53,117 nt of DNA from a virus (taxonomy: Duplodnaviria; Caudoviricetes), in IMG/VR virus record IMGVR_UViG_3300030110_004955, positions 1 through 53,117 of that record. One strand, given 5' to 3'. The position numbers and the translations under genes are program-made. The notes beneath the pieces were generated by a model. It did no database searches. It was not told the origin of the DNA and saw nothing but the letters and a program-made list of their open reading frames with translations. Each line of letters starts with the position of its first letter. Position 1 is the first letter of the stretch. Of the stretch, positions 3,048 through 47,650 are shown in pieces.

Positions 3048-4283
3048 ATGGGCGTTCTTGACTTCGGACAAGCAACACGGAAAGTAGTACAAGCGGCGGC
3101 AACTCCTGGAGCACAAGACGTTGCGGCGACTGCCGTTACACCACCTGCGGCTGCTGCTCCACCACCTGCGGCTGCTGCTCCACCACCTGTTGCACCGCCC
3201 GCAATTCCGTCTGAACCCGATCCAGTTGAGCCGCCACCAGTTGAGCCCACACCTGAGCCAGAGCCAGAGCCTGTGGCTGTCGAGGGTGATCTGGACGAGT
3301 TGAACAAGCGTGCCGATGCTCTTGAATTAGAAATTAAAAACCTTCAGTCTTCGGTTCGTGGTCAGGCTCCGGTCAAACTTCGTGCGACGATTGAAGAACG
3401 TGAAATGGCTCAGTTGGAAAAAGACGAAGCCACGCAATTACTTTCAGCGAAAAGAGGTGAGTTGCGTCAGGTTTTAGAGCAAATAGAGTCTCTTTCTGGT
3501 GTGGCTGAGCCCGCTAAAGCACCTTCGGCTCCCCCTCCTGGCGTTGAGTTTGACGAGAAACGCGGCCCTGTGTACCCAGGTAGATCGAGAGAGCGGTCAC
3601 AAGAAAAGTTGATTGAAGCCGAGACTGGGGCGAGAACGATTGAGCAAACTCAACCCGGTATTTATGAGTACTTTAGTTCCGGTCCAGAGATGCGTGAAGT
3701 TGAGTTACCCATCGAAGGAGAAGAACCTCGAGTGTACGCTCGTTCTCGTAAGAGACAAGCGATGAAACAGTTGTTCGATCCTCGGACTGGTGGCGTTGCT
3801 TTAAACAACCCTTTGGGAGAGGCACTAATAAAATCTCCTGCGAGGTTGGGTATTGCTGCAGGTCAATCAGTTTATGACCAAACATTGGGCAGCGGCGACA
3901 AACCGACGGCAGACAGTATTTCTCCTGAGTCACTAAGGGCTCCGTTTTCGAGTGGTGTGATGTTTGCTCCGCGAGCACCAATGGGTCAACAGTTTGACGC
4001 GGATAAAACCGGCGAGAAATTGAGCGTAGAAATTTTGTCGCGTAAAAGAAATATCCGTGGTGCAAATTCGAGACTAACAGAGCTTCAAGATAGTATCGGT
4101 GACACGAGTCGACCTGGTGATATTTACGCTGAGATCGAGGCGTTGAAAGATGAGAAAGAGCAAATGCAAGCTGAGTTGAATCAATTGCTTCGCATAAAAG
4201 ACGTTACAATACCTCGACGAGAGGCAGAAGAAGAATCAGAGCCAGAGAAACATCTTTTGGGTGATTTTGCGTCTCAGTTTTAA
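3048..4283 (+). CDS. Pro/Ala-rich coiled-coil protein, putative internal virion protein
   Basis: 411 aa, GAGGT RBS, PPAAAAP repeats and two predicted coiled-coil segments; tightly packed in the operon. Confidence 0.55.
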   Translation: MGVLDFGQATRKVVQAAATPGAQDVAATAVTPPAAAAPPPAAAAPPPVAPPAIPSEPDPVEPPPVEPTPEPEPEPVAVEGDLDELNKRADALELEIKNLQSSVRGQAPVKLRATIEEREMAQLEKDEATQLLSAKRGELRQVLEQIESLSGVAEPAKAPSAPPPGVEFDEKRGPVYPGRSRERSQEKLIEAETGARTIEQTQPGIYEYFSSGPEMREVELPIEGEEPRVYARSRKRQAMKQLFDPRTGGVALNNPLGEALIKSPARLGIAAGQSVYDQTLGSGDKPTADSISPESLRAPFSSGVMFAPRAPMGQQFDADKTGEKLSVEILSRKRNIRGANSRLTELQDSIGDTSRPGDIYAEIEALKDEKEQMQAELNQLLRIKDVTIPRREAEEESEPEKHLLGDFASQF

Positions 4284-37722: not shown

Positions 37723-38094
37723 CTATGGAATTGAGACGTTGGGGTTGTGGTGGTTTGTCGTGGCGTTGTACCGGGTGGTGAAGAGTGCGTAGGGCGCAGA
37801 GTTTACCGGGACAAGCGTTTCTGATTCGACGAATGTGGTGTGGTCGTATGGGTTGTATGTCACGCCACGGGAGATACCGGCGCGCAGGTCGTCAGCAACG
37901 TGGTAGACACGGTGACCGCGAGCAAACGCGTGGACATTCTTACGACGTTGATGGCGTACCCGAGCATTACCACCGGGTTGAACCACGAATTCAACATCCT
38001 CAAGGGCGATATAGGGTACGTGTTCAATGACCTTGCCTTTGTGCCGGACACTGAAACATTTTTTTCGAATGTTCCAATAGACGTCGACTTTCAT
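37723..38094 (-). CDS. Conserved phage hypothetical protein (VY.N..K.CFSV / RKNVHAF / YNPY family)
   Basis: Motifs recognisable from widespread phage early proteins; GGAGG RBS. Confidence 0.65.
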   Translation of the reverse strand: MKVDVYWNIRKKCFSVRHKGKVIEHVPYIALEDVEFVVQPGGNARVRHQRRKNVHAFARGHRVYHVADDLRAGISRGVTYNPYDHTTFVESETLVPVNSAPYALFTTRYNATTNHHNPNVSIP

Positions 38095-39206: not shown

Positions 39207-39463
39207 CGGTTTCGCTCCATGCGTTCGAGTTTCCAGTCTTCATAGCGTCGGTCATCCTCGGCATCTTTGAGACCTTGGACGTGGTCGGCTGCACCCTGTT
39301 CGGTGACCTCTTCTTCTTCGTGGTCTTCGAGTTCGATGGGTTGTCCAGTCTCGCAGTTAATTGCCTTTAGGATTTCCATTTCGTCGTAGTCGGGGTAGAA
39401 GACGCAGTCGACTTCGATCTCTATGGTGCGGGTTATGTGGTAGGTGAAGTGTTGCTTACGCAT
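39203..39463 (-). CDS. Hypothetical acidic protein
   Basis: 86 aa; AGGAG RBS immediately after the repeat array. Confidence 0.6.
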   Translation of the reverse strand: MRKQHFTYHITRTIEIEVDCVFYPDYDEMEILKAINCETGQPIELEDHEEEEVTEQGAADHVQGLKDAEDDRRYEDWKLERMERNR

Positions 39464-39476
39464 GAAGACTCCTAAG

Positions 39477-39617
39477 AATGCGTGGCATGGAAAGTACTGG
39501 GCTGGTTAGGGCAGGATAGGAATGTGCTGCGTCGGCGCGGCGTGGGTAAAAATGCGTGGTCTGGTGAGAGGGGGGTGGGGCCAGAAACGGATAGGCGCGA
39601 CCTGGAATGATGAGGCA
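39477..39617 (-). repeat. Pentamer-periodic array, two units (12 and 13 pentamers), candidate guide RNAs
   Basis: Plus strand: AATGCG tgg ca tgg aa agt ac tgg gc tgg tt agg gc agg at agg aa tgt gc tgc gt cgg cg cgg cg tgg gt, then AAAAATGCG tgg tc tgg tg aga... The central G is invariant every 5 nt, with one 1-nt slip in a G run. Confidence 0.85.
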
Positions 39618-39648
39618 CCTGTTCGCCGTGCCTCCCTGCGCGATATGA

Positions 39649-40269
39649 TTACTTGGCGGCGGCGCTGTTCATACGGTACTTGCCGTTTGAGTCAGCGACT
39701 GAGACGTCGAAGCGACCCCATCCCCAGCCACGGCTGGCACCGATACCGGTGTACATACCCGCGTCGGTGATGTACTTGATGATGGCGTCTTCATCCATTT
39801 CGTCCTGCATGTAGGTGATGGTGATCTCGGCGGACCAGTCATAGAATACAGCACGGGTTTTTGGAATCATCTTACCGTTGACCTTGACCAAAGATTCGTA
39901 GTGGAAACGGTCGTCTTTGAGTAGGCCTTTTAATGTTTTGGGTCCGTCGTAATCGAGGACAGCGTCACGCATAACGCTACAATAACGTTTACATGCGGCA
40001 CCACCTTTACTTAGTTTGGCGCCTTCGATGAGAGCAGCGCGAATGTTTTCGGCGGGGATTACTACCTTGCCTTTGTCGTTGAGGTAGAGGCACGCTTCGA
40101 ATTCGACAAGCGCCATCTGGTCAAGGATTGCATCAACGTCGGCGGTCTTGCCTTTCTTTTTTGTGTTGAGTTCCTTGAGACGGCGGGCGTATTTATTGCG
40201 TGGGTTCGCGGTCTGGTTGTTTTGCAGCATGAGGCGGTCGCCTTGCAGCAGGAAAGTTACGTCGGGCAT
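39649..40269 (-). CDS. Stand-alone RAMP/Cas7-like protein (Vipr-like)
   Basis: N-terminal beta strand then L(M)LQN; VIPAENIRAALIEGA resembles IPGSSLKGALR; C-terminal Gly-rich loop GIGASRGWGWGRFDV; 206 aa; no other cas genes nearby. Confidence 0.75.
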   Translation of the reverse strand: MPDVTFLLQGDRLMLQNNQTANPRNKYARRLKELNTKKKGKTADVDAILDQMALVEFEACLYLNDKGKVVIPAENIRAALIEGAKLSKGGAACKRYCSVMRDAVLDYDGPKTLKGLLKDDRFHYESLVKVNGKMIPKTRAVFYDWSAEITITYMQDEMDEDAIIKYITDAGMYTGIGASRGWGWGRFDVSVADSNGKYRMNSAAAK

Positions 40270-40805
40270 TAGTTGTCCTGGGTTGGGGGGGTGTTGGTCG
40301 GTTGGACAGGAGCGTCCTGGTAGCGTTGAAGACGGTTGGCTTCTACTCGGGCACGTCGTACGTGACTTGCAAGTGCAGACATACGAGTCTGGGCGGCTTG
40401 TTTGCGGCGGCGATCTTCATCAGACAGGTCGCTGTTGCGCGTTAGGCGCAGGATCTTGCGTCCACGACCAATGGTTTTGCTGATGTCTTTGAGCACGTTG
40501 GTGTCAACGAAGGCAACGTTTTGGTCGGGCTCAAGAAGTTTGAAGCCTTCGCCCCATAATGTTTTCGGCCAACGGCCAGTGCGTTCGAGTACGATCATCC
40601 GAAACTCAGCGCGGAGAGTGAGCAGGGTGAGGTTCCATTGCTTGTGTAGATCGATGGGATCGGTGTTGGTAGGAGGGGCAAGTCCAGACCATTCAATCAA
40701 TTGTTCGGTCGTTATTAGATTGAATTCAGGGCTGGCTACGAGGATATCGTCGAGACGATCGGCTGCATGTTCGGCAGCTTTGAAGACTACGGGTGTAGGG
40801 TACAT
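40269..40805 (-). CDS. Partner protein of the RAMP-like gene (178 aa, helical, possible winged helix)
   Basis: GGAG RBS before the ATG at 40805; TAATG-coupled to the RAMP-like gene. The track's longer N-terminus is translated repeat array. Confidence 0.7.
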   Translation of the reverse strand: MYPTPVVFKAAEHAADRLDDILVASPEFNLITTEQLIEWSGLAPPTNTDPIDLHKQWNLTLLTLRAEFRMIVLERTGRWPKTLWGEGFKLLEPDQNVAFVDTNVLKDISKTIGRGRKILRLTRNSDLSDEDRRRKQAAQTRMSALASHVRRARVEANRLQRYQDAPVQPTNTPPTQDN

Positions 40806-40822
40806 GGTCACTCCGGGTGGGG

Positions 40823-40988
40823 AAGATGCGCGGTTTGTAAGGGCACGGGTTGGTATGACGCGGAATGGAAAGTCGCGTACTGGTGAGAACAAATAAATAT
40901 GCATGGTTTGGTGAGGCGCGCTGTGGTGCGGGCAGGAAAGGTCGGGTCGGACTGGGCCTGCTGCGTCGAGGACGGCTCTGGTTTGTGT
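40823..40988 (-). repeat. Pentamer-periodic array, two units (17 and 12 pentamers), candidate guide RNAs
   Basis: Plus strand: AAGATGCG cgg tt tgt aa ggg ca cgg gt tgg ta tga cg cgg aa tgg aa agt cg cgt ac tgg tg aga ac; then AAATAAATATGCA followed by 17 in-phase NGN-NN pentamers (40904-40988). Confidence 0.85.
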
Positions 40989-41071
40989 CAGGTTTTTTGG
41001 TGGTGACTGACGAACCACAAAGGGGGGGATTTTGTTTCCGTTCACCGCAGATCCCGTACTGCGCGAAAGTG

Positions 41072-41260
41072 TTACCTGGCCTCCTGGCCGCAGATGGCAC
41101 AGGTCCAGATGTCATCGGCGTCTGGAGCGTGTAGTACCTGGCAGTCAGATTTTTTGGATAGTTCGATGAAGTTTCCGTGATGATCTATGACCCAGTCCTC
41201 AGTGACATGGGCCGTGGCTATGAAGCGATCATGTGTGGGATCGCTGGGGCATACTTTCAT
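41072..41260 (-). CDS. Small Zn-ribbon-like protein
   Basis: MKVCP...WTCAICG; ATGA-coupled. Confidence 0.55.
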   Translation of the reverse strand: MKVCPSDPTHDRFIATAHVTEDWVIDHHGNFIELSKKSDCQVLHAPDADDIWTCAICGQEAR

Positions 41261-42186
41261 TTGGCCTCGCCAACGTCTACGTACTCACGAATACTCAGGT
41301 CGAACGCAGGGATGTGCGCGTCGGTTACTGAACCACCAGCAAGGGCGATAGCCTTTGTCGCATGGTCAATGCCAGCGAAGTGACGGAAAGCTTGGTTGGG
41401 TGGGGTGCGTTGACCGGCGGCAGTGACAGCCTGGTATGCAGAGAACAAGTCATTGGTGCCGTGTTCACTGTGAAGATCACCGTTGTGGCAATCGTTCCAG
41501 TAACGGAAGGCAGCGGTAAACGAGTTGGGCTTGATCAAACCACGACTAAATAAGACACCCATGTATGCACCAAACAAATCGTTCTGTACTGGTATGTCCT
41601 TCCACCCTTCAATCATGCGAATACGTTCGAGGACTGGGGTGACTGCTGTGTCAGTAATGTCGTCCAACATATTACCGAGAGTGGAGAATACGTTGGTAGT
41701 ATGCTTGGCACTGACCATGTGTTCGCCAGAGAAACAACCGTTGGCACATACGAACGGAGCGCTACCAATAGCTATCTGGTTGGAGATAGTCTTGTCGTAG
41801 CTGGACCGTAGGGCAACGGTGATGGCCTGACCAGTGAGGCCGGAACCGAAACCAATCATGCCAAAGAGTTGGCTACCCTTTTTATTCAGGGCATAGGTTT
41901 CGAATAGGGGTTCAGCGTTGAGGACATTGGCCATTGCATCACGGGCACCGTCAATGAGGGACGCGTATGGTACAGGTTGGTAGCTGGCATTGCCTGAACG
42001 TGGATGCAATTCAGGCTCGGGCACAGGTACTTCGCACACGCTACGGTAGTCGGTACGATAGGCTTCGGGTGCACCGATGGTGCATATCTGTTGGCGTTTT
42101 AGTTGTGGGGGAGGAGCGACGGGAGCACGATTGATGCTTGTATTCAGACGCTCTACGGAGAGTGGTACGCAACTATGTTCTTGCAT
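41257..42186 (-). CDS. DUF932-like protein
   Basis: LRSSYDKT....IG...FVCANG...KHT, plus a C-terminal LFSAYQAVT motif. Confidence 0.65.
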   Translation of the reverse strand: MQEHSCVPLSVERLNTSINRAPVAPPPQLKRQQICTIGAPEAYRTDYRSVCEVPVPEPELHPRSGNASYQPVPYASLIDGARDAMANVLNAEPLFETYALNKKGSQLFGMIGFGSGLTGQAITVALRSSYDKTISNQIAIGSAPFVCANGCFSGEHMVSAKHTTNVFSTLGNMLDDITDTAVTPVLERIRMIEGWKDIPVQNDLFGAYMGVLFSRGLIKPNSFTAAFRYWNDCHNGDLHSEHGTNDLFSAYQAVTAAGQRTPPNQAFRHFAGIDHATKAIALAGGSVTDAHIPAFDLSIREYVDVGEAK

Positions 42187-42755: not shown

Positions 42756-43139
42756 TTAGAATGGGATGTCATCGTATGTGGATGACGGGTGGGATTGTGA
42801 CTGTCCGTTCATAGACTCAGCACGGGAGATAAACTCGACGCGGTCAGCAAGAATCTCGCGGGCGGTACGTTCTTGGTTGTCACGCGTCTTGTACTTACGA
42901 GTGCGAAGCTTACCCTCGACGATAACCTTGGAGCCTTTGGTCAGATACTTTCCGCAGGTCTCTGCCTGTTTGCCGAAGACGACAACCTGGTGCCATTCGG
43001 TATGGTCAGTGTATGTGCCGTCGGGTTGGCGGTTCCGTTCGTTGGTAGCGACACTAAGGTTGACTACCTTGGTACCGCTTTTGGTGTCCTTGACCTCGGG
43101 GTTGGCGCCAAGGTTGCCAGATATAAATACTCGGTTCAT
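42756..43139 (-). CDS. ssb: Single-stranded DNA-binding protein
   Basis: MNRVFISGNLGANPE..SVATN..TEWHQVVVFGKQAE..YLTKGSKVIVEGKLRTR; C-terminal DDIPF. Confidence 0.95.
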   Translation of the reverse strand: MNRVFISGNLGANPEVKDTKSGTKVVNLSVATNERNRQPDGTYTDHTEWHQVVVFGKQAETCGKYLTKGSKVIVEGKLRTRKYKTRDNQERTAREILADRVEFISRAESMNGQSQSHPSSTYDDIPF

Positions 43140-47129: not shown

Positions 47130-47650
47130 TTTTTCACTTCCGTTATTGGTTATGACAGATTTACAAGGATGAACACCATGTTCACCCAACAAGAGAAAAG
47201 AAAACAAACAAACAAATAAACATAAACAAATAAAGTATTATGAAACTCATTTGATAATCTCCTTGTCTCACTTGCTGGACATGGAGATTATTGAGGGTGA
47301 TAGGGATTTAGTAGTAGTAGTTAAAACATTGGGTATGAAGCAAAAGCGTCGGCCCGCTCAGGGTCGACATCCAAGCAGCGTAGCGATTGCGGCCAATGTT
47401 TTAGCTGCACCCTTCCTGAAAAGGGGTCCATTATGATTATATTTTTGGCATCAAAATATAATCTAGGTCATGGCCATGGAACATGGACAAGCGGCGCGGT
47501 GACCGAAACAAGGAGTAGTTATTAAGATTAAATAACTTGTTAGTTAATGTTAATAAATGCGACCAAGAAGCCCCCTTTTCCACTGGCCCATAGGCATAGT
47601 CGGCAAGGTCAGCGGGACATTCGGTGAGTGGAGAATCGCTGTGAACATGG

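Follow-up and report, generated by a model that had tools for sequence, protein, structure and literature searches.

The region between about 39.4 and 41.1 kb of the DNA analyzed here (the window, 53,117 nt at its full length) contains two genes and, on both sides of them, tracts in which the plus strand carries a G at every fifth nucleotide. All genes in this region are on the minus strand. The DNA is viral: it is an IMG/VR virus record, and clear matches to an SSB gene (42756-43139) and to a phage L5 gp82-like gene (37723-38094) are located nearby. The sequencing runs listed for the virus are marine DNA metagenomes only, with no RNA run among them. The features of the locus are as follows; the gene names anticipate the identification given below.

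40987-41037, plus strand: structured end of the upstream array (hairpin, possible pseudoknot, then a G-run and a T-rich stretch)
40899-40989, plus strand (G-bearing): upstream 17-pentamer unit ("unit A"); G run 40905-40985, tract 40905-40989
40899-40906, plus strand: conserved leader of the 17-pentamer unit, ATGCATGG; its GG opens the tract at 40905
40826-40898, plus strand: upstream 12-pentamer unit ("unit B"); G run 40832-40887, tract 40832-40891, then an A/T-rich linker
40826-40833, plus strand: leader of the 12-pentamer unit, ATGCGCGG
40269-40805, minus strand: candidate vap-like accessory gene, 178 aa, ATG start at 40805; matches phrog_5926
39649-40269, minus strand: vipr gene, 206 aa, single-RRM RAMP (Cas7-like); matches phrog_4652
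39612-39634, plus strand: hairpin closing the downstream array, with a stem of 7 bp and a loop of 9 nt; 15 nt separate it from the vipr stop codon
39552-39618, plus strand: downstream unit D2; leader ATGCGTGG at 39552-39559, 12 pentamers from 39558
39478-39551, plus strand: downstream unit D1; leader ATGCGTGG at 39478-39485, 13 pentamers at 39484-39548, then an A-rich linker

The stop codon of the 178-aa gene overlaps the start of the 206-aa gene by one base (TAATG); the two are translationally coupled, and the 178-aa gene is conserved alongside its neighbor in the related loci L002-L005 and L018-L021. The last unit of the 17-pentamer tract overlaps the tail hairpin. On the other side of the genes, D1, whose 13-unit G run covers 39484-39544, adjoins the ribosome binding site and start (39463) of the next minus-strand gene, and the D2 tract can alternatively be read over 39554-39614 as 13 positions with one miss. 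Two further minus-strand reading frames border the locus. One (41257-42186), directly upstream, encodes a 309-aa protein with a sub-threshold match to DUF932 (E=3.7e-4, 20.8 bits vs a cut-off of 23). The other (41072-41260), a 62-aa ORF, lies between the upstream array and the DUF932-like gene; it has four Cys residues (C4, C40, C54, C57), matches no family and is absent from L019, a 96% relative.

Base pattern of the period-5 tracts

The G at every fifth position was seen by direct reading and by a script. No period-5 run of at least 8 was formed by any other base in the whole window, and runs of this length are well outside chance expectation: across 100 shuffles that preserved the dinucleotides, the longest period-5 run ranged from 7 to 12 (reaching 12 once) and never came to 13, against 17 in the real sequence. 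The sequence-only reading from which this work started had described the two upstream tracts as 12 and 17 NGN-NN pentamers (40831-40890 and 40904-40988) separated by an AT-rich linker. This description is accurate, as the G runs listed above and the linker, with A or T at 11 of the 13 positions of 40891-40903, indicate. Each of the two tracts is internally in phase, with an offset of 3 nt between them. The sequence-only reading had also reported arrays flanking the genes on either side, and the four tracts are indeed distributed two to each side (39484-39618 and 40832-40985). A 12-dinucleotide string given as the "unit B sense" sequence was also correct. Its reverse complement is the NN string of the 12-unit tract, so "unit B" is that tract as seen from the gene strand, opposite to the strand that bears the G.

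Among 55 pentamers, the fixed position is G in 54. The base that follows it is G in 35 of the 55, the base that precedes it is more often T or A (T 21, A 13, C 11, G 10), and the remaining two positions are near uniform. There is no pyrimidine preference after the Gs, and the GGY/NN repeat known as canonical (see below) is absent here; across the clade formed by the window, L002-L005 and L018-L021, the third base of the fixed site prefers G (50-75%). Every tract is opened by the leader ATGCRYGG, the GG of which is the first unit. The leader motif is not enriched in the window as a whole (6 found, 6.8 expected), and four of the six occurrences are located exactly at the four tract starts. The periodicity scan proposed earlier for orphan units came up empty in the window, where the leader motif precedes a tract only at the four arrays. 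Tandem Repeats Finder made no call on the period-5 tracts. Two other low-complexity stretches of the window are unrelated to these arrays: an A-rich intergenic one with AAAC/AAAT-like runs at 47172-47256, and one at 3122-3253 made up of tandem repeats of 21 and 15 nt in which C recurs at every third base.

Start of the 178-aa gene

A 258-aa ORF starting at a GTG at 41045 runs through both upstream tracts, so that 40806-41045 would encode a Pro/Arg/His-rich N-terminal extension of the 178-aa protein. The extension is false, as had been claimed from the letters of the window, and the start and ribosome binding site proposed at 40805 agree with what was found. A GGAG is located 5 nt upstream of the ATG at 40805, and the 11 aligned homologues, down to 36% identity, all start at the same M-Y. 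In a homologue search restricted to lengths of 97-312 aa, six homologues of 109-178 aa were recovered, of which the full-length ones have 172-178 aa. The frame upstream of the ATG is open for 102 codons in the window, 74 in L019, 50 in L018 and 5 in L020, a 91%-identical relative with an in-frame stop 5 codons upstream of the 40805 start; the L018 upstream peptide is unrelated to the extension in the window. Within 40806-41045, base identity is 0.36, 0.34 and 0.39 at lags 5, 10 and 15. The two real coding sequences show their identity peaks at lags 3, 6 and 9 instead.

An extension conserved in homologues with codon-type substitutions was the observation that the sequence-only reading had named as fatal to its own proposal. 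Instead, whole units are swapped or deleted between relatives and the periodicity is at lag 5. The lack of conservation of the extension, the lag-5 pattern, the common M-Y start and the ribosome binding site therefore favor the short protein. The case for a genuine 258-aa protein is the stretch of 102 codons without a stop that precedes the ATG in the window, on the C-rich minus strand of arrays in which stop codons are seldom found, and it is opposed by the L020 stop, the unrelated L018 peptide, the lag of the periodicity and the common start with its ribosome binding site. The periodic DNA could also be imagined as a site that a protein binds in double-stranded form, for example iterons or a partition site; here the strict G asymmetry between the strands and the link to Vipr described below point to a single-stranded reader. 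That either of these two explanations is correct is extremely improbable.

Structures at the ends of the arrays

A hairpin is found only at the last unit of each array, internal units having a short linker. In the upstream hairpin, 40987-40992 pairs with 41006-41011; 23 of 24 cells pair in a comparison of only four sequences, with three of the six pairs changed on both sides and one G.U pair. A possible pseudoknot between 41000-41004 and 41014-41018 is paired in 75% of the cells, without compensatory change. The downstream hairpin is present at the same place in L018, L019, L021 and L002, and its first arm is found in L003 and L004 at the end of the examined stretch; because it is invariant, it gives no covariation evidence. 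Folding energies at both array ends and on both strands were not better than those of shuffles (z -0.3 to -1.1) and are therefore uninformative. A search of Rfam at E<=1 returned no match in the array region and no model for the array end structures.

Identity of the two proteins

The AF2 model of the 206-aa protein (pLDDT 89.6) has a Cas7/Csm3-type fold. Foldseek returned 86 PDB matches at E<=0.001, with type VII Cas7, Csm3 (III-A), Cmr (III-B) and IV-A subunits at the top (probability 1.00, TM about 0.4-0.5), and the protein carries the G-loop GIGASRGWGWGRF and a long beta-hairpin thumb. It matches no Pfam family. Its family profile matches PDB 36pp_D, "SUSP1 Vipr protein", with E=1.8e-29 over 198 of 208 profile positions, and tblastn found it in 128 phage records, mostly Felixounavirus, at about 30% identity. 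A DNA similarity search with 39400-41300 against the phage collection had no matches. While a locus search with the single protein returned none, an alignment-based search recovered 15 IMG/VR loci with a Vipr homologue (24-56% identity, GC 31-69%), and all 15 have period-5 G or C runs of at least 8 beside the gene (at least 10 in 14 of them). The residues published as readers of G1 and G2, H17, D177 and W178, are replaced by Q16, A178 and S179 in the window Vipr, which keeps K32, E74, K85, G90, R139 (R138 in SUSP1) and R180. The homologue of phage wV8 has 13 of the 14 published SUSP1 contact residues.

In the Vipr proteins of this clade, the C-terminus (39649-39665 in the window) is a short Ala-rich tail ending in Lys (AAAK, MAAAAK and similar) in 14 of 17 aligned sequences. 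It is disordered in the model (pLDDT <50 at residues 202-206) and absent from SUSP1 and wV8. The tail may serve as a degradation tag, or its sequence may be under constraint from the RNA hairpin immediately downstream.

The 178-aa protein was modeled with high pLDDT (90.3) as helices plus a beta-hairpin. A fold search found no PDB match better than E=0.28, the weak top hits being winged-helix regulators. It resembles wV8 gp095, the product of the gene next to vipr in that phage (hhalign E=1.4e-4, probability 53%, 117 columns; blastp E=1.5e-5). From this similarity we tentatively assign the gene as a vap-like accessory gene.

VIPR (Viral Interference Programmable Repeat) is a CRISPR-like viral DNA-silencing system described in 2026 (bioRxiv 10.64898/2026.04.26.720920), with SUSP1 and P. 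fulva as the characterized systems. The Vipr protein polymerizes on vrRNAs made of GGY/NN pentamers, published with 9-16 units, and hides the fixed trinucleotide, leaving the NN bases to pair with dsDNA in such a way that every third target base is passed over; in this way VIPR silences competing phages and satellites (10.64898/2026.04.26.720920). The E=1.8e-29 match to 36pp, the Cas7-like fold and the presence of period-5 arrays beside the homologues in 15 of 15 loci led us to conclude that the region is very probably a VIPR locus of an uncultured marine phage. It would consist of vipr, a vap-like partner gene and four vrRNA units, two per side, acting, by analogy with the characterized systems, through a comparable silencing mechanism. 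The sequence-only reading had proposed several independent guides of variable length with a gapped code. Such guides were demonstrated experimentally for the family in the 2026 VIPR papers, and the neighbor of the present arrays is a Vipr homologue, which suggests that the same holds here.

Other systems were considered. A TRAP-like attenuation site and a RecT-type 5-nt footprint were dropped when the Cas7 fold and the Vipr match appeared. Class 1 CRISPR-Cas was rejected, there being no repeat-spacer array (Tandem Repeats Finder; repeats of about 25-40 nt) and no Cas families among the neighbors; PADLOC gave only four weak G-loop hits (E 0.017-0.038).

Turnover of the units among relatives

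The metagenome loci L018-L021 encode a partner protein 91-96% identical to that of the window. Both genes are intact and 90-98% conserved in the relatives, which keep the leaders and the array ends and have units replaced, lost or gained. D1 is present in L018 and L021, which have an extra unit between D1 and D2, and is missing from L019; its core is unchanged in three relatives. On the upstream side, L019 has the 17-unit tract and, with one substitution in 60 columns, the 12-unit tract, which is absent from L018 and L020. L018 carries an unrelated upstream unit, and L020 a single one, the 3' half of which is that of the 17-unit tract of the window. Tracts in the relatives reach 19-22 units.

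Seven of the 16 unit-relative pairs could be aligned, the 17-unit tract and its L020 counterpart being only partly homologous. In these seven pairs the fixed G was changed in 0 of 97 columns and the base before it in 3 of 98, and the three positions after it differed in 15, 10 and 8 columns (of 97-98). Between relatives, the greatest variability is thus found at the base that follows the fixed G, which varies as much as the NN pair. The turnover of units is cassette-like exchange under a period-5 constraint, not codon-type change. In L005 (3650-4094), the Vipr of which is 51% identical, the repeat core is a palindromic G-C (G 100%, C about 81%) that is the same on both strands. This core is a further repeat variant within the clade.

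Search for targets

Candidate targets were judged by the criterion of the VIPR papers, at least 80% of the NN bases under the 1-nt skip rule. Since the dsDNA target pattern NN-x-NN is the same under either strand, the searches are independent of the strand that gives the RNA. Across the window and 25 loci (159,314 bases), with five registers, di- and trinucleotide guides and skips of 0-3, no match exceeded 77% of the specified bases except self-matches of the arrays. The best local scores for two guide registers were 62-75%, not above chance, and there was no self-target.

The scans of the large collections covered the 17-unit tract, the 12-unit tract and D1. In the register of the sequence-only reading, exact scans of IMG/VR had no hits with 11-unit or 9-unit seeds of the 17-unit tract, with 12 units of the 12-unit tract or with 9 units of D1. 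A 9-unit seed of the 12-unit tract had one match in IMG/VR (L022), in which 1 of 8 non-seed units agreed, and a 10-unit seed had one in a soil MAG of the genome collection (L023), with 0 of 7. The published N4N5 register gave three matches to a 9-unit seed of the same tract in IMG/VR, with 0, 0 and 1 of 8 non-seed units. All these matches were discarded as chance. The gapped target search suggested at the outset therefore produced no match at the 80% level in the window, the 25 loci or the seeds from IMG/VR and the genome collection; this blank result is weak evidence because exact seeds were needed and the collections are limited.

The lack of a target could be taken to mean that the arrays are platforms for Vipr filaments without a guide role (decoys, sponges or autoregulatory mRNA sites), or eroded relics, with variable bases that drift neutrally. 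D2 has a 1-nt insertion in its third unit (a G-run, 39567-39573) relative to L021, shared with L019, so the pentamer phase shifts by one after 39572. This slip and the loosely kept position after the fixed G would agree with such a role. D2 may be a damaged or a tolerated guide. However, both genes are intact and 90-98% conserved, units are exchanged as whole cassettes with precise leaders and no decay, the D1 core is unchanged in three relatives, and the published members with the same architecture are guides. Together with the exact seeds and limited collections of the target searches, these observations make the platform or relic explanation very unlikely, and the arrays are treated below as putative guides.

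Strand and register of the putative guide RNA

The guide RNA probably originates from the G-bearing plus strand, antisense to the genes. Every repeat variant in the available text of the cited papers has a purine at the central fixed position. On the plus strand the hairpin, possibly with the pseudoknot, is 3' of the tract, as in wV8; read from the minus strand it would lie 5' of the tract, unlike the published 3' tails. Each of the two helices has one G.U pair in L018 that fits the plus strand alone and becomes an A.C mismatch on the other. In addition, the Vipr of the window retains R139, which corresponds to the Arg that holds G2. An A-rich nAAnAT element 6 nt before each leader GG may be -10-like.

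The same family of system could instead use guides read from the gene strand, in which c-C-w/NN units would be cut from the operon transcript and the fixed C would be held by the protein. Several observations agree with this proposal. In terms of G, all arrays are antisense to the genes in the window, L002-L005, L018-L021 and L007/L008, with tight same-strand gaps, whereas the canonical GGY loci (L006, L009-L017) have the G strand on the gene strand; read from the minus strand, the arrays would then be co-directional with vipr in all loci. Residues of the published G pocket have been replaced. The gaps of the one-strand operon are taken up by the arrays, which leaves little room for antisense promoters, and no convincing plus-strand promoter was found: no sigma-70-like site of at least 9/12 precedes the arrays, and promoter and terminator sites are no commoner than in shuffles, with none located ahead of an array. 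A CAC/NN variant is listed in the available text of 10.64898/2026.10.21.760802. Each unit would end in a short conserved CCRYGCAUU... that could serve as a 3' handle or RNase site. This unit end may resemble an RNase E motif. The orientation may, nonetheless, be a single inherited event in one clade, in which case the correlation is not independent evidence. Considering also the central purine, the position of the hairpin, the L018 pairs and the retention of R139, guides from the gene strand are a possibility that we hold to be doubtful. We give similarly little credit to the more specific idea that the fixed-base pockets (H17Q, D177A, W178S) switched from guanine to cytosine in the marine-phage clade, together with operon-strand guides cut from mRNA. 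The sole sigma-70-like site of the scan (AGGACA-16-TACAAT, 9/12; 39956-39983, plus strand) falls within the vipr gene on its antisense strand, some 850 nt ahead of the upstream arrays, and is no more than expected by chance.

With the plus strand as the probable source, a w-G-g/NN register, in which the variable pair is the NN of the sequence-only reading, fits if the invariant G is aligned to the invariant second G of wV8. The earlier NGN-NN register is compatible with the data and with the non-canonical repeats WGT/NN and TGH/NN in the available text of 10.64898/2026.10.21.760802. We infer the two bases after G-g as the guide pair and state it no more firmly because the base after the fixed G is just 66% G and is the most variable one between relatives.

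By analogy with the published systems, the arrays would be expressed as RNA and bound by Vipr, the protomers of which would polymerize along each RNA, one per pentamer. Each protomer would sequester the fixed trinucleotide (w-G-g) and expose the two variable bases, which would pair with the dsDNA of a competing mobile element in an NN-skip-NN pattern. This pairing would silence transcription of the competitor.

Discussion

The system is already published, and the locus is a somewhat unusual further member; this clade, its motif or its antisense layout may already be listed in print. With the type II VIPR of the Escherichia phage SUSP1 and of wV8 it shares a small single-RRM RAMP homologous to SUSP1 Vipr, one small, probably DNA-binding candidate partner gene adjoining vipr, vrRNA units (about 12-17 pentamers here) on both sides of two genes with differing variable bases, and a structured hairpin at the end of the tract; all are phage-borne. 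In wV8 the Vipr homologue is flanked by plain GGT-NN arrays, followed by the gene weakly similar to that of the 178-aa protein.

The differences are several. The repeat is w-G-g/NN rather than GG-Y/NN, and Q, A and S take the place of H17, D177 and W178 of SUSP1. The vap-like gene comes before vipr and overlaps it by one base, whereas in wV8 vipr comes before vap1. Unlike in SUSP1 and wV8, the G strand here runs antisense to the genes, and the units are joined by short A-rich linkers and preceded by the leader ATGCRYGG. Hairpins are confined to the last unit of each array, whereas every wV8 unit examined has its own, and each SUSP1 vrRNA has its own tail (10.64898/2026.04.26.720920 and the available text of 10.64898/2026.10.15.759431). 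The relatives of the window reach up to 19-22 units, compared with 9-16 in published VIPR.

Non-canonical VIPR repeats have been reported as NNNGG, YNNNG and NNNNG (10.64898/2026.04.26.720920, Methods) and, in the available text of 10.64898/2026.10.21.760802, as WGT/NN, TGH/NN, GAC/NN and CAC/NN. Since the papers accept related consensus forms, the missing GGY/NN excludes the canonical subtype, not the VIPR family. As far as the available text goes, these variants share with the present arrays the period of 5, a fixed central purine with degenerate neighbors, a variable dinucleotide that follows and an adjoining Vipr-like fold. They differ in the third base of the fixed site, which prefers G here and is T, C or H in the variants printed there. 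The resemblance to class 1 CRISPR-Cas (Cas7/Csm3/Cmr4 on crRNA) is in the RAMP fold with G-loop and thumb and in the formation of a helical filament of protein along a guide RNA whose bases are flipped at regular intervals, which the available text of 10.64898/2026.04.26.720927 describes for VIPR. The present locus differs in having no repeat-spacer array and no other cas genes, a period of 5 instead of 6 and a noncontiguous guide.

The locus opens no new kind of system. It illustrates that VIPR arrays are recognizable from raw sequence alone and that gene callers hide them within spurious ORF extensions. The family gains a marine clade in which the repeat is relaxed, the base-reading residues are altered, the guides are longer and the units turn over like cassettes, and this clade can help to identify the Vipr residues that determine the repeat code. 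If operon-strand guides were true, there would be a second, complementary VIPR "alphabet" and a different route of biogenesis. If the G strand is used, the novelty is smaller, namely guide arrays transcribed convergently, antisense to their own effector operon. The RNA strand of these arrays would show how far the VIPR code can vary.
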